64,000 nt of DNA from Escherichia coli (GTDB lineage Bacteria > Pseudomonadota > Gammaproteobacteria > Enterobacterales > Enterobacteriaceae): NCBI RefSeq assembly GCF_003334335.1, contig NZ_QOWQ01000002.1; one strand, given 5' to 3'. The notes beneath the pieces were generated by a model. It ran no database searches. It worked only from the letters and a program-made list of their open reading frames with translations, and was not told the origin of the DNA. Below are positions 66 through 7,442 of this stretch, one piece after another (position 1 is the stretch's first letter; the number at the start of each line of letters is the position of its first letter). Made by a program: the position numbers and the translations under genes.

Positions 66-3000
66 ATGCGGATTATCTTTCTACGCAAGGAGTATTTATC
101 TTTACTCCCGTCAATGATTGCATCTCTTTTCTCTGCTAACGGTGTCGCGGCGGTCACTGATTCATGCCAGGGATATGATGTCAAAGCGAGTTGTCAGGCC
201 AGCAGGCAAAGCCTTTCAGGCATTACGCAGGACTGGAGTATCGCTGATGGGCAATGGCTGGTTTTTTCGGATATGACCAATAACGCCAGCGGTGGGGCCG
301 TATTTTTGCAACAAGGAGCGGAATTTTCACTATTACCAGAAAATGAAACTGGAATGACTCTGTTTGCCAATAACACCGTTACAGGAGAATATAATAACGG
401 CGGGGCCATATTTGCTAAAGAAAACTCAACGCTGAATCTTACTGATGTTATTTTTTCCGGTAACGTCGCAGGCGGCTATGGTGGCGCAATCTATTCTTCT
501 GGTACTAACGATACTGGTGCCGTCGATTTACGTGTCACTAACGCCATGTTTCGCAATAACATCGCTAATGATGGCAAAGGTGGCGCAATTTATACCATTA
601 ATAATGACGTTTATTTAAGTGATGTTATTTTTGATAACAACCAGGCATATACATCAACAAGTTACAGTGATGGCGATGGCGGGGCAATCGATGTTACCGA
701 TAATAATAGCGACAGCAAGCATCCTTCAGGTTATACGATAGTAAATAACACTGCCTTTACAAATAACACTGCCGAAGGTTATGGCGGGGCGATATATACC
801 AATAGCGTGACGGCTCCCTATCTTATTGATATTTCTGTTGATGACAGCTACAGCCAGAACGGAGGCGTGTTAGTCGATGAGAACAATAGCGCAGCAGGCT
901 ATGGAGATGGTCCTTCCTCTGCGGCGGGTGGCTTTATGTATCTCGGCTTAAGTGAAGTTACCTTTGATATTGCCGACGGAAAAACGCTGGTTATTGGCAA
1001 TACAGAGAATGACGGAGCTGTTGACTCTATTGCTGGTACCGGGTTAATCACCAAAACAGGTTCCGGCGATCTGGTACTTAATGCAGATAACAATGACTTT
1101 ACTGGTGAGATGCAGATTGAAAACGGTGAAGTTACCCTGGGCCGCAGCAACTCCCTGATGAATGTCGGCGATACGCATTGCCAGGACGATCCGCAAGACT
1201 GCTACGGTCTGACGATAGGGAGTATTGATCAGTATCAGAATCAGGCTGAGCTAAACGTTGGCTCGACCCAACAAACTTTTGTGCACGCATTGACGGGCTT
1301 TCAGAATGGCACTTTAAATATCGATGCTGGTGGCAACGTTACTGTTAATCAGGGCAGTTTTGCTGGCATCATCGAAGGTGCTGGTCAGCTCACCATTGCG
1401 CAAAACGGCAGCTACGTGCTGGCAGGGGCGCAGTCGATGGCGCTAACCGGCGATATAGTCGTTGATGATGGTGCGGTGCTTTCGCTGGAAGGCGACGCGG
1501 CAGATCTTACCGCTCTCCAGGACGATCCGCAGTCGATCGTGTTAAACGGCGGTGTGCTCGATCTCTCTGATTTCTCCACCTGGCAGAGCGGCACATCATA
1601 CAACGATGGCCTTGAAGTCAGTGGCAGCAGCGGAACGGTTATCGGCAGTCAGGATGTGGTAGATCTTGCAGGTGGCGACAATTTGCATATCGGCGGCGAC
1701 GGGAAAGATGGCGTCTACGTGGTGGTCGATGCGAGCGACGGGCAGGTAAGTCTGGCAAACAATAATAGTTATTTGGGCACAACACAAATCGCCTCCGGTA
1801 CGCTGATGGTGAGCGACAACTCGCAGCTTGGAGATACCCACTATAACCGCCAGGTTATCTTTACCGATAAGCAACAAGAAAGCGTGATGGAGATTACCTC
1901 CGACGTTGACACGCGTTCAGATGCGGCAGGCCACGGACGTGATATTGAAATGCGCGCCGACGGTGAAGTGGCAGTTGATGCGGGGGTAGACACGCAGTGG
2001 GGCGCACTGATGGCTGACAGCAGCGGGCAGCATCAGGATGAGGGTAGCACATTGACTAAAACGGGGGCTGGTACACTGGAGCTGACCGCCAGCGGTACAA
2101 CGCAGTCGGCGGTACGTGTCGAAGAAGGCACCCTGAAAGGTGATGTTGCTGATATCCTTCCTTATGCTTCGTCACTGTGGGTTGGTGATGGGGCAACGTT
2201 CGTTACTGGCGCGGATCAGGATATTCAGTCAATTGATGCTATTTCCAGCGGCACTATCGACATCAGCGATGGTACGGTTTTGCGCCTGACCGGGCAGGAT
2301 ACTTCCGTCGCCCTTAATGCCTCACTATTTAACGGCGATGGGACGCTGGTGAATGCCACCGATGGTGTGACGTTGACAGGTGAGCTTAATACCAACCTTG
2401 AAACTGACAGCCTGACTTATCTTTCCAACGTGACGGTTAATGGCAATCTGACCAATACGTCCGGTGCGGTTAGCCTGCAAAATGGCGTCGCTGGCGATAC
2501 GCTGACGGTAAACGGTGATTATACCGGCGGCGGTACGCTACTGCTCGATAGCGAATTAAACGGCGATGACTCGGTAAGCGATCAATTGGTGATGAACGGT
2601 AATACTGCTGGCAACACAACTGTGGTGGTTAACTCCATTACAGGGATTGGTGAGCCGACATCGACAGGCATTAAAGTGGTTGATTTCGCAGCTGATCCCA
2701 CGCAGTTTCAAAACAATGCGCAGTTCAGTCTGGCAGGCAGCGGCTACGTCAATATGGGAGCGTATGACTACACGCTGGTGGAAGATAACAACGACTGGTA
2801 TCTGCGATCGCAAGAAGTAACGCCGCCATCGCCACCTGATCCAGACCCGACTCCCGATCCTGATCCCACGCCGGATCCTGATCCAACACCCGACCCGGAA
2901 CCTACGCCTGCTTACCAGCCGGTGTTGAATGCCAAAGTTGGCGGTTATCTCAATAACCTGCGGGCGGCAAATCAGGCGTTTATGATGGAGCGACGCGATC

Positions 3001-3818
3001 ACGCAGGTGGCGATGGTCAGACGCTGAATTTACGTGTTATCGGCGGAGATTATCATTACACAGCAGCGGGGCAACTGGCTCAACATGAAGACACTTCTAC
3101 GGTGCAACTTAGCGGCGATCTGTTTAGCGGGCGCTGGGGCACGGATGGCGAGTGGATGCTTGGGATTGTTGGTGGCTACAGCGATAACCAGGGCGACAGC
3201 CGCTCGAATATGACCGGAACTCGCGCCGATAACCAGAACCACGGTTATGCCGTTGGGCTGACATCAAGCTGGTTTCAGCACGGTAATCAGAAGCAAGGGG
3301 CCTGGCTGGATAGCTGGCTGCAATACGCGTGGTTTAGCAATGATGTTTCCGAACAAGAAGATGGCACAGATCATTACCACTCGTCGGGGATTATCGCCTC
3401 GCTGGAGGCGGGGTATCAGTGGTTACCGGGGCGTGGTGTGGTGATTGAACCGCAGGCGCAGGTGATTTATCAGGGCGTGCAGCAGGATGATTTTACCGCC
3501 GCTAACCGTGCGCGCGTGTCACAATCGCAGGGTGATGATATTCAGACGCGGCTGGGTTTACACAGCGAATGGCGTACCGCTGTTCATGTCATACCAACAT
3601 TAGATCTGAATTATTATCACGATCCCCATTCGACGGAAATTGAAGAGGATGGCAGCACTATCAGTGACGATGCGGTGAAGCAACGGGGTGAAATAAAAGT
3701 GGGAGTCACGGGCAATATCAGTCAGCGAGTGTCCCTGCGCGGCAGCGTGGCGTGGCAGAAAGGGAGTGATGATTTTGCCCAGACGGCAGGGTTTTTGTCG
3801 ATGACGGTGAAATGGTAA
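66..3818 (+). CDS. yfaL: Autotransporter adhesin (type Va), 1250 aa; signal peptide, Asn/Gly-rich beta-helical passenger, Pro/Asp/Thr linker, C-terminal beta-barrel ending in W
   Basis: Full-length ORF in track; architecture and sequence recognised as E. coli YfaL; synteny next to ubiG-gyrA. Confidence 0.9.
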   Translation: MRIIFLRKEYLSLLPSMIASLFSANGVAAVTDSCQGYDVKASCQASRQSLSGITQDWSIADGQWLVFSDMTNNASGGAVFLQQGAEFSLLPENETGMTLFANNTVTGEYNNGGAIFAKENSTLNLTDVIFSGNVAGGYGGAIYSSGTNDTGAVDLRVTNAMFRNNIANDGKGGAIYTINNDVYLSDVIFDNNQAYTSTSYSDGDGGAIDVTDNNSDSKHPSGYTIVNNTAFTNNTAEGYGGAIYTNSVTAPYLIDISVDDSYSQNGGVLVDENNSAAGYGDGPSSAAGGFMYLGLSEVTFDIADGKTLVIGNTENDGAVDSIAGTGLITKTGSGDLVLNADNNDFTGEMQIENGEVTLGRSNSLMNVGDTHCQDDPQDCYGLTIGSIDQYQNQAELNVGSTQQTFVHALTGFQNGTLNIDAGGNVTVNQGSFAGIIEGAGQLTIAQNGSYVLAGAQSMALTGDIVVDDGAVLSLEGDAADLTALQDDPQSIVLNGGVLDLSDFSTWQSGTSYNDGLEVSGSSGTVIGSQDVVDLAGGDNLHIGGDGKDGVYVVVDASDGQVSLANNNSYLGTTQIASGTLMVSDNSQLGDTHYNRQVIFTDKQQESVMEITSDVDTRSDAAGHGRDIEMRADGEVAVDAGVDTQWGALMADSSGQHQDEGSTLTKTGAGTLELTASGTTQSAVRVEEGTLKGDVADILPYASSLWVGDGATFVTGADQDIQSIDAISSGTIDISDGTVLRLTGQDTSVALNASLFNGDGTLVNATDGVTLTGELNTNLETDSLTYLSNVTVNGNLTNTSGAVSLQNGVAGDTLTVNGDYTGGGTLLLDSELNGDDSVSDQLVMNGNTAGNTTVVVNSITGIGEPTSTGIKVVDFAADPTQFQNNAQFSLAGSGYVNMGAYDYTLVEDNNDWYLRSQEVTPPSPPDPDPTPDPDPTPDPDPTPDPEPTPAYQPVLNAKVGGYLNNLRAANQAFMMERRDHAGGDGQTLNLRVIGGDYHYTAAGQLAQHEDTSTVQLSGDLFSGRWGTDGEWMLGIVGGYSDNQGDSRSNMTGTRADNQNHGYAVGLTSSWFQHGNQKQGAWLDSWLQYAWFSNDVSEQEDGTDHYHSSGIIASLEAGYQWLPGRGVVIEPQAQVIYQGVQQDDFTAANRARVSQSQGDDIQTRLGLHSEWRTAVHVIPTLDLNYYHDPHSTEIEEDGSTISDDAVKQRGEIKVGVTGNISQRVSLRGSVAWQKGSDDFAQTAGFLSMTVKW

Positions 3819-3945: not shown

Positions 3946-4668
3946 TCACTTATTCTGCGTGTGCAGCATATAGTTCACATCCACGCCGGGGCCGAGTTTA
4001 AAAGTATTAGTGATCGGGTTGTAATGCAGCCCAGTGATATGCCGCTCTTTTAAACTGGTCTGATCCACCCAGCCCAGCAATTCTGCCGGTTTAATAAACT
4101 TCTTCACATCATGCGTGCCTTTGGGCACCATGCGCAAAATATATTCCGCACCAACCACCGCCATCAGCCATGACTTGCCGTTGCGGTTAAGTGTCGAGAA
4201 AAAGACATCGCCGCCTGGTTTCACCAGTTGCGCACAGGCTCTGACCACTGACTGCGGATCGGGGACGTGCTCCAGCATCTCCATGCAGGTCACCACATCA
4301 TACTGCCCGGCATGTTTTGCCGCGTGCTCTTCCACGGTTTCCTGCACGTAATCCACCTGAATGCCGCTTTCCAGTGCGTGCAGTTTTGCCACCTGCAATG
4401 GCTCAAAGCCCATATCCAGACCGGTCACCGTCGCGCCTTCGCGCGCCATACTCTCGGCCAGAATGCCGCCGCCACAACCGACATCGAGCACCTTTTTGCC
4501 AAATAAACCGCCAGCACGCTCGGCAATATAGCCCAGACGCAGCGGGTTAATGCGGTGCAGCGGTTTGAACTCACCTTCCAGATCCCACCAGCGGGAGGCG
4601 ACGGCTTCAAATTTAGCGATCTCTTCGTGGTCTACGTTATGGTTTACCGGCGATTTTTCGGCATTCAT
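3946..4668 (-). CDS. ubiG: Ubiquinone biosynthesis O-methyltransferase, 240 aa
   Basis: Track ORF 3946..4716 trimmed to the internal Met ([11 protein letters not shown]...) matching known UbiG N-terminus; SAM-binding motif VLDVGCGGG present. Confidence 0.92.
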
Positions 4669-4761
4669 TGGCACTTCTACTCCGTAATTGGCAAGACAAA
4701 CGAGTATATCAGGCATTGGATGTGAATAAAGCGTATAGGTTTACCTCAAACTGCGCGGCTG

Positions 4762-4814: not shown

Positions 4815-7442
4815 ATGAGCGACCTTGCGAGAGAAATTACACCGGTCAACATTGAGGAAGAGCTGAAGAGCTCCTATCTGGATTATGCGATGTCGGTCAT
4901 TGTTGGCCGTGCGCTGCCAGATGTCCGAGATGGCCTGAAGCCGGTACACCGTCGCGTACTTTACGCCATGAACGTACTAGGCAATGACTGGAACAAAGCC
5001 TATAAAAAATCTGCCCGTGTCGTTGGTGACGTAATCGGTAAATACCATCCCCATGGTGACTCGGCGGTCTATGACACGATCGTCCGCATGGCGCAGCCAT
5101 TCTCGCTGCGTTATATGCTGGTAGACGGTCAGGGTAACTTCGGTTCTATCGACGGCGACTCTGCGGCGGCAATGCGTTATACGGAAATCCGTCTGGCGAA
5201 AATTGCCCATGAACTGATGGCCGATCTCGAAAAAGAGACGGTCGATTTCGTTGATAACTATGACGGCACGGAAAAAATTCCGGACGTCATGCCAACCAAA
5301 ATTCCTAACCTGCTGGTGAACGGTTCTTCCGGTATCGCCGTAGGTATGGCAACCAACATCCCGCCGCACAACCTGACGGAAGTCATCAACGGTTGTCTGG
5401 CGTATATTGATGATGAAGACATCAGCATTGAAGGGCTGATGGAACACATCCCGGGGCCGGACTTCCCGACGGCGGCAATCATTAACGGTCGTCGCGGTAT
5501 TGAAGAAGCTTACCGTACCGGTCGCGGCAAGGTGTATATCCGCGCTCGCGCAGAAGTGGAAGTTGACGCCAAAACCGGTCGTGAAACCATTATCGTCCAC
5601 GAAATTCCGTATCAGGTAAACAAAGCGCGCCTGATCGAGAAGATTGCGGAACTGGTAAAAGAAAAACGCGTGGAAGGCATCAGCGCGCTGCGTGACGAGT
5701 CTGACAAAGACGGTATGCGCATCGTGATTGAAGTGAAACGCGATGCGGTCGGTGAAGTTGTGCTCAACAACCTCTACTCCCAGACCCAGTTGCAGGTTTC
5801 TTTCGGTATCAACATGGTGGCATTGCACCATGGTCAGCCGAAGATCATGAACCTGAAAGACATCATCGCGGCGTTTGTTCGTCACCGCCGTGAAGTGGTG
5901 ACCCGTCGTACTATTTTCGAACTGCGTAAAGCTCGCGATCGTGCTCATATCCTTGAAGCATTAGCCGTGGCGCTGGCGAACATCGACCCGATCATCGAAC
6001 TGATCCGTCATGCGCCGACGCCTGCAGAAGCGAAAACTGCGCTGGTTGCTAATCCGTGGCAGCTGGGCAACGTTGCCGCGATGCTCGAACGTGCTGGCGA
6101 CGATGCTGCGCGTCCGGAATGGCTGGAGCCAGAGTTCGGCGTGCGTGATGGTCTGTACTACCTGACCGAACAGCAAGCTCAGGCGATTCTGGATCTGCGT
6201 TTGCAGAAACTGACCGGTCTTGAGCACGAAAAACTGCTCGACGAATACAAAGAGCTGCTGGATCAGATCGCGGAACTGTTGCGTATTCTTGGTAGCGCCG
6301 ATCGTCTGATGGAAGTGATCCGTGAAGAGCTGGAGCTGGTTCGTGAACAGTTCGGTGACAAACGTCGTACTGAAATCACCGCCAACAGCGCAGACATCAA
6401 CCTGGAAGATCTGATCACCCAGGAAGATGTGGTCGTGACGCTCTCTCACCAGGGCTACGTTAAGTATCAGCCGCTTTCTGAATACGAAGCGCAGCGTCGT
6501 GGCGGGAAAGGTAAATCTGCCGCACGTATTAAAGAAGAAGACTTTATCGACCGACTGCTGGTGGCGAACACTCACGACCATATTCTGTGCTTCTCCAGCC
6601 GTGGTCGCGTCTATTCGATGAAAGTTTATCAGTTGCCGGAAGCCACTCGTGGCGCGCGCGGTCGTCCGATCGTCAACCTGCTGCCGCTGGAGCAGGACGA
6701 ACGTATCACTGCGATCCTGCCAGTGACCGAGTTTGAAGAAGGCGTGAAAGTCTTCATGGCGACCGCTAACGGTACCGTGAAGAAAACTGTCCTCACCGAG
6801 TTCAACCGTCTGCGTACCGCCGGTAAAGTGGCGATCAAACTGGTTGACGGCGATGAGCTGATCGGCGTTGACCTGACCAGCGGCGAAGACGAAGTAATGC
6901 TGTTCTCCGCTGAAGGTAAAGTGGTGCGCTTTAAAGAGTCTTCTGTCCGTGCGATGGGCTGCAACACCACCGGTGTTCGCGGTATTCGCTTAGGTGAAGG
7001 CGATAAAGTCGTCTCTCTGATCGTGCCTCGTGGCGATGGCGCAATCCTCACCGCAACGCAAAACGGTTACGGTAAACGTACCGCAGTGGCGGAATACCCA
7101 ACCAAGTCGCGTGCGACGAAAGGGGTTATCTCCATCAAGGTTACCGAACGTAACGGTTTAGTTGTTGGCGCGGTACAGGTAGATGACTGCGACCAGATCA
7201 TGATGATCACCGATGCCGGTACGCTGGTACGTACTCGCGTTTCGGAAATCAGCATCGTGGGCCGTAACACCCAGGGCGTGATCCTCATCCGTACTGCGGA
7301 AGATGAAAACGTAGTGGGTCTGCAACGTGTTGCTGAACCGGTTGACGAGGAAGATCTGGATACCATCGACGGCAGTGCCGCGGAAGGGGACGATGAAATC
7401 GCTCCGGAAGTGGACGTTGACGACGAGCCAGAAGAAGAATAA
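4815..7442 (+). CDS. gyrA: DNA gyrase subunit A, 875 aa; QRDR wild-type (Ser83 TCG at 5061-5063, Asp87 GAC at 5073-5075); acidic C-terminal tail
   Basis: Full ORF; active-site and QRDR stretch [17 protein letters not shown] read directly from translation. Confidence 0.97.

Follow-up and report, generated by a model that had tools for sequence, protein, structure and literature searches.

The window, by which we mean the whole 64,000-nt stretch of Escherichia coli DNA analysed here, carries near its start the gene yfaL (also called ehaC) on the plus strand at 66–3818, an open reading frame of 1250 amino acids that NCBIfam and RefSeq assign to an AIDA-I-type (type Va) autotransporter adhesin. 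Its product covers the YfaL/EhaC equivalog model NF007285 completely (1–1250 of 1250) with 2812 bits against a cut-off of 1459, and DNA identical to the window gene carries the annotation yfaL in RefSeq E. coli genomes. The name of the family and the literature mark YfaL as a putative adhesin displayed on the cell surface, and expression tables show weak yfaL expression in K-12 cultures (PMC6389913). According to the annotation of matching RefSeq loci, the gene is followed downstream by ubiG (3946–4716, minus strand) and gyrA (4815–7442, plus strand), hence the window represents the yfaL-ubiG-gyrA chromosomal region of E. coli. Over 551 nt the window was identical to several non-K-12 strains and differed by 1 nt from K-12 derivatives. 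yfaL was found in 5,419–5,420 of 5,426 complete E. coli genomes, and in two strains it was seen to be inactivated away from the segment studied below, by an internal stop codon in OkiPb01681 and by an IS1A truncation in C6. An antisense open reading frame at 2556–3002 (148 aa) was rejected as a gene: it mirrors the sense frame, is rich in Arg, Ile and Trp, and shows no gene sign.

We searched Pfam with YfaL residues 501–1250 and found an autochaperone or pertactin-like junction domain at residues ∼794–914 (2445–2807, plus strand) with a DWYLRS motif at its end. Two models hit this domain, AC_1 (PF18883, residues 794–904, E=1.3e-18) and Pertactin (PF03212, residues 811–914, E=5.7e-9), and it aligns to residues 29–138 of the AIDA-I structure 4MEE and to the IcsA autochaperone 3ML3. 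Further downstream come a predicted alpha-helix that would plug the barrel pore (residues 956–970, 2931–2975, plus strand; AlphaFold2), where the second stretch aligned to 4MEE starts, and the autotransporter beta-barrel domain (residues 989–1228, 3030–3749, plus strand; PF03797 with E=1.2e-34, TIGR01414 and the AlphaFold2 strands). YfaL thus has the C-terminal 12-stranded beta-barrel with its pore helix behind an autochaperone domain, as seen by Pfam, by 4MEE and in the AlphaFold2 model. Between the helix and the junction domain lies a proline-rich acidic spacer, PPSPP(DPDPTP)3DPEPTP, at residues 920–948 (2823–2909, plus strand). The AIDA-I transport unit 4MEE aligns with YfaL residues 808–917 and 957–1244 but not across the spacer, and the connection from autochaperone to helix takes ∼10 residues in AIDA-I versus ∼40 in YfaL. 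In the AlphaFold2 model of residues 801–1250 (mean pLDDT 86.8, pTM 0.83), beta strands run through residue 919 and are followed by coil at 920–948, by the helix at 956–970 and then by the barrel, and the pLDDT of the coil, 57–62, is the minimum of the whole model. These alignments place the spacer as an insert that separates the autochaperone, at the end of the passenger, from the pore helix. The first-pass annotation had placed it at the passenger-to-barrel junction, and Pfam, the 4MEE alignment and the AlphaFold2 model all agree with that placement.

The spacer peptide of YfaL residues 920–948, PPSPPDPDPTPDPDPTPDPDPTPDPEPTP, is exactly the one quoted in the first-pass annotation, whose coordinates of 2826–2910 gave the right region with a start off by 3 nt and an end off by 1 nt. 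Sixteen of the 31 prolines of YfaL fall inside these 29 residues, a concentration for which chance is excluded, and no long open reading frame of the window contains an equally dense proline-rich stretch elsewhere. At the DNA level, Tandem Repeats Finder and a repeat search resolve four 18-nt units, GAY CCN GAY CCN ACN CCN, at 2838–2909 on the plus strand. The earlier wording of repeated ccNgaYccNgaYccNacN units fits this DNA apart from unit four, which has GAA (Glu). Tandem Repeats Finder, which had been suggested as a check, did report an in-register tandem repeat of period 18 (sub-period 6) at 2838–2908, with 3.9 copies, 75% matches and a score of 65, together with a second call at the spacer of period 36 and score 86; the separate repeat search returned four copies spaced 18 nt at 2835–2912 that are 67–75% identical. 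The longest exact direct repeat in the window allele is only 11 nt long, GATCCTGATCC, and occurs at 2856 and 2874 in units 2 and 3.

We then compared the window allele with 5,000 synonymous re-encodings of the 24-residue periodic peptide, resampled with the codon usage of yfaL. Its lag-18 DNA identity was 74% against an expected mean of 78%, the observed value was reached by 93% of resamples, and the 11-nt repeat equalled the median expectation. Because lag-18 identity was no higher than in the resampled sequences, the DNA repeat is a shadow of the periodic peptide with scrambled synonymous sites, and the window-allele spacer is not a recently amplified microsatellite. The allele that we call B1-type differs in this respect, since its units are perfect copies of GATCCTGACCCAACACCC, unlike the degenerate units of the window allele. 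No DNA secondary structure that could explain instability or assembly breaks was found at the spacer (z-score 0.10). Five GATC (Dam) sites crowd into 46 nt of spacer DNA, at 2838, 2856, 2862, 2874 and 2880, and form the densest such cluster of the 64-kb window, because Asp(GAT)-Pro(CCN) codon pairs produce them. A perfect 13-nt inverted repeat (2826–2838, CCATCGCCACCTG, and 3004–3016, CAGGTGGCGATGG, with arms 165 nt apart) flanks the spacer and the pore-helix coding region; its arms encode PSPP and AGGDG, and it is probably coincidental because alleles encoding AGGNG or PLPP break it.

Linker length was compared across 5,426 complete genomes, as the first-pass annotation had advised with the remark that one identical length in all alleles would refute its proposal. 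The survey revealed an in-frame, whole-unit length polymorphism with at least seven in-frame lengths of 17–35 aa. All length differences are multiples of 6 nt, and the sampled genes are all in frame across the spacer. An even sample taken along the ranked matches to a 161-nt query gave 59 informative rows, of which 40 had the window length, 13 were shorter by 18 nt, four (∼7%) were longer by 6 nt and two were shorter by 24 nt. Twenty fetched alleles encoded 16 distinct spacer peptides of seven lengths, 17–35 residues as the first-pass annotation delimits the linker, and their spacer sequence also varies through swaps among D, E, A, I, V, S and L. To count alleles in complete genomes we used allele-specific searches with E-value limits that pass only near-perfect full-length matches. 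The window allele was present in ∼1,959 genomes, and a B1-type allele with two units, marked by ‘DPIP’ and 18 nt shorter, in 1,175. Other B1-type alleles had one unit (−36 nt, 21 genomes) or three units, which restore the window length (10 genomes), and two further classes, the L004 type at −24 nt (174 genomes) and the L001 type at −12 nt (26 genomes, including EAEC 042), were also recovered. Above the window length we found an exact duplication of unit 2 (+18 nt) in two records, apparently of one strain, and a duplication of GATCCT (+6 nt) in one genome. These +18 and +6 window-type alleles were revealed by a synthetic six-unit query, which left the B1-type alleles unranked as BLAST tiling gave full coverage everywhere. 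The rarest alleles, +6 and +18, could in principle be assembly errors, though an exact in-frame unit duplication is an unlikely type of error. One of the ∼5,420 matches to the spacer part of yfaL lay in a plasmid-labelled record.

The major length classes follow deeply split yfaL lineages, which differ at 14–50 positions per 500-nt flank. Thus most of the standing variation is old or recombination-borne, and slippage adds occasional variants to it. The divergence of yfaL between E. coli lineages is itself unusually high, 3–10% over the 500 nt flanking the spacer. Some yfaL alleles look mosaic, one of them with a B2-like start and an ‘APDPTP’ end, which suggests recombination inside the gene.

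The slipped-strand mechanism put forward by the first-pass annotation agrees with the whole-unit nature of the changes, with their occurrence, as recent events, on identical backgrounds and with the short direct repeats at their junctions. In the +18 allele, GATCCTGATCCCACGCCG (unit 2) is duplicated exactly, with the 11-nt repeat as its boundary; in the +6 allele the duplicated piece is GATCCT; and the 500-nt flanks of the window, +18 and +6 alleles are identical. The B1-type series consists of 1, 2 or 3 copies of the perfect unit GATCCTGACCCAACACCC; a one-unit and a two-unit allele were found with identical flanks, and the one-unit and three-unit alleles each occur with at least three flank variants. 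Moreover, two O111:H8 strains showed 0 mismatches over 5.84 kb of yfaL-ubiG-gyrA while one 18-nt unit was lost in one of them. A larger event involves a 12-nt direct repeat, CTGATCCCACGC, located by the repeat search at 2692–2703 on the plus strand with its partner at 2860–2871 in the spacer: in VTB97022v, a natural 168-nt in-frame deletion has the two CTGATCCCACGC copies as end points, and takes out 56 codons, from late in the autochaperone domain to midway through the spacer. The yfaL gene of VTB97022v is still annotated as intact.

How often such changes occur can be judged roughly from the genomes. A unit more or a unit fewer was present in 31 of ∼1,206 B1-type genomes (2.6%), and on the window haplotype ∼4 of ∼1,960 records (0.2%) were derived; both figures count genomes, not events, and because genomes are not independent the contrast between 2.6% with perfect units and 0.2% with 11-nt exact repeats is only indicative. 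Slippage itself is supported, but to call the repeat prone to it says too much for the window allele, which has units ∼74% identical and ∼0.2% derived records and is stable rather than hypermutable. The first-pass statement that length would change without breaking the frame was borne out by every variant: length always changed by a multiple of 6 nt, and the reading frame held across the spacer. With head-to-tail units that are a multiple of 3, whole-unit differences in copy number and changes on identical backgrounds, the locus behaves as a coding variable-number tandem repeat; the spacer is a slow coding minisatellite and no switch.

Runs in which proline alternates with Asp and Thr have no compact fold and tend to an extended, polyproline-II-like conformation. 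Very probably, the YfaL spacer is a non-globular, proline-rich, stalk-like element whose length is changed in whole units by occasional slippage or unequal exchange. The DPDPTP periodicity of the peptide puts direct repeats, short and spaced at 6 and 18 nt, into its coding DNA; when replication slips or exchange is unequal between them, which would happen occasionally, whole units would be gained or lost without disturbing the frame. The spacer would act as an extended, polyproline-II-like stalk that holds the beta-helical passenger off the barrel mouth and the lipopolysaccharide layer; at ∼3.1 Å per residue, 17–35 aa would span ∼5–11 nm. The claim that a change in linker length alters surface exposure, or the reach of the adhesin, is plausible given the predicted position at the barrel mouth. 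A stronger version holds that spacer length is selected to match the thickness of O-antigen or capsule in a phylogroup-specific manner, with the perfect B1-type units being more evolvable and the scrambled units of the window or K-12 type damping slippage; we consider this version unlikely. If it were true, the lengths of 17–35 aa would set how far the YfaL passenger projects, and length changes of the B1 type would be ∼10 times more frequent per genome sampled.

Spacers of this kind are known in the family. TibA of E. coli has an extra proline-rich domain at residues 627–677, between the junction (autochaperone) region and the membrane-embedded C-terminal domain (PMC3835316). Like YfaL, TibA is an AIDA-I-type type Va autotransporter, and the spacer has the same position in both, the TibA region being ∼50 aa long versus 29 aa in YfaL, and we liken them on the basis of the published description of TibA. 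The YfaL spacer shares with it the position, the proline-rich (16 Pro in 29 aa) and non-globular character, and the retention in relatives. Among 13 diverse homologues with the full-length domain that were inspected, 12 have a proline-rich stretch at the spacer position, and relatives that are 30–35% identical (from Citrobacter, Stenotrophomonas, Paraburkholderia and metagenomes) nearly all show a stretch rich in Pro, Asp, Thr and Glu. This stretch, usually acidic, comes after the WYL(R/T)S motif and ahead of (Y/F)RPE, where the helix begins; its length runs from ∼11 to >90 residues, and some distant relatives show clear repeats in it, for example PDPEPTPDPDPT... or (DPDDGGSDVTPV)n. Alternating proline and charged residues are also thought to form extended rods in the (Glu-Pro)n and (Lys-Pro)n regions of TonB and in the Glu-Pro and Asp-Pro repeats of trypanosome procyclin. 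With these proteins the YfaL spacer has composition in common and no homology; Pfam procyclin (PF05887) matches residues 920–948 with a non-significant E=0.53, a compositional hit. One distant homologue (P0074) carries the procyclin Pfam label.

Whether the lengths matter to the cell is the point on which the main alternative differs, namely that the spacer undergoes neutral low-complexity drift and need only be flexible or unfolded, so that all observed lengths are equivalent and have no phenotype. The slippage genetics are the same as in the stalk-like reading and the two part on function only; we give neutrality a chance a little short of even. It is favoured by the drift of the spacer sequence as well as its length, as seen in the 16 peptides among 20 sampled alleles, by the spacers of distant homologues, which range from almost none (P0110) to >90 aa (P0094), by AIDA-I having only ∼10 residues at this position, and by the weak expression of yfaL in K-12 cultures. 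However, most relatives keep a proline-rich spacer at the same position, a sign that its composition is under some constraint.

For the (GGXXP)n and (PQP)n repeats of Bordetella pertactin, antigenic variation of an exposed stretch under immune pressure has been proposed; in our judgement the like is improbable for YfaL. These two regions, named R1 and R2 in Bordetella pertussis, are the classic polymorphic proline repeats of the superfamily (PMC3279416). Both proteins are beta-helical autotransporters with in-frame, proline-containing tandem repeats of strain-variable copy number, and in both a polymorphic repeat rich in proline is found towards the C-terminal end of the passenger (PMC3279416). 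The YfaL junction domain matches the Pfam Pertactin family, and by prediction the YfaL spacer is exposed and unstructured. The motif is different, however, and in YfaL the autochaperone domain precedes the spacer, which is immediately followed by the pore helix. Moreover, the major YfaL alleles are stable over thousands of genomes and follow allele lineages, expression in culture is weak, and we saw no sign of YfaL being an immunodominant antigen or of the vaccine-driven selection that is discussed for pertactin (PMC3279416).

It is highly improbable that the spacer is a contingency (phase-variable) locus in which slippage toggles YfaL expression at high frequency: a tandem repeat within the coding region of a surface adhesin invites the idea, yet all units are multiples of 3 and the sampled alleles are in frame across the spacer, the units are degenerate in most lineages, the window allele having a longest exact repeat of 11 nt, ∼99.8% of genomes with the window haplotype share one length, variants make up 2.6% on the B1 haplotype, and the inactivated genes were hit outside the spacer, by the internal stop codon and by IS1. 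Neither frame-shifting nor high variability was found, and a phase-variable spacer is effectively refuted. Equally remote is the explanation that the length variation comes from errors in sequencing or assembling a difficult repeat. Short-read draft contigs do very often break in or beside the spacer, but the survey was restricted to complete genomes, the main classes occur with identical sequences in 21 to 1,959 independent genomes from many laboratories, and the differences are exact whole-unit insertions or deletions, unlike homopolymer errors.

Draft assemblies deserve a separate remark. In hundreds of short-read drafts of Shigella sonnei and E. coli the YfaL protein is only partial, as contigs break off within the spacer or shortly ahead of it and pick up again directly beyond it. 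The upstream fragments (for example L021 and L022) finish anywhere from ∼residue 881 to 940, and the downstream fragments (L023–L025) begin with APTPAYQP or YQPVLN and form clusters of 303 and 519 members. No IS sequence was seen at the inspected contig ends near the spacer, and the breaks look like a systematic coverage or assembly drop-out. Since yfaL is often broken at the spacer in short-read assemblies, calls of presence or absence, or of a ‘truncated’ gene, from draft genomes should be treated with care.

As a variable repeat, the spacer can be compared with the generic multilocus variable-number tandem repeat (MLVA) loci of E. coli, which have units of 6, 15, 18 and 39 bp (scheme in PMC8143711). 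Coding loci of this type have in common with the YfaL spacer units that are a multiple of 3, copy-number differences between strains and slippage as the mechanism. None of the ten generic MLVA primer pairs maps to the yfaL spacer, the sole match in the window being one primer with 3 mismatches outside it, so that primer mapping rules out the spacer as one of these loci; its low variability would make it a poor typing marker. Among the papers searched, none described a repeat or linker polymorphism of yfaL, and where laboratory evolution is reported to have mutated yfaL, the changes were point mutations or frameshifts that lie outside the spacer. Hence the catalogue of spacer alleles may be new, while its kind is well known.

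The practical value of these observations is modest, and they point to no new mechanism. Proline-rich spacers are common at this place in AIDA-type autotransporters such as TibA, and the variation of the YfaL spacer is ordinary for such proteins. YfaL is a widely conserved E. coli adhesin that also serves as a surface-display anchor, and its natural spacers of 17–35 residues offer a ready allelic series for the stand-off of a passenger from the outer membrane.
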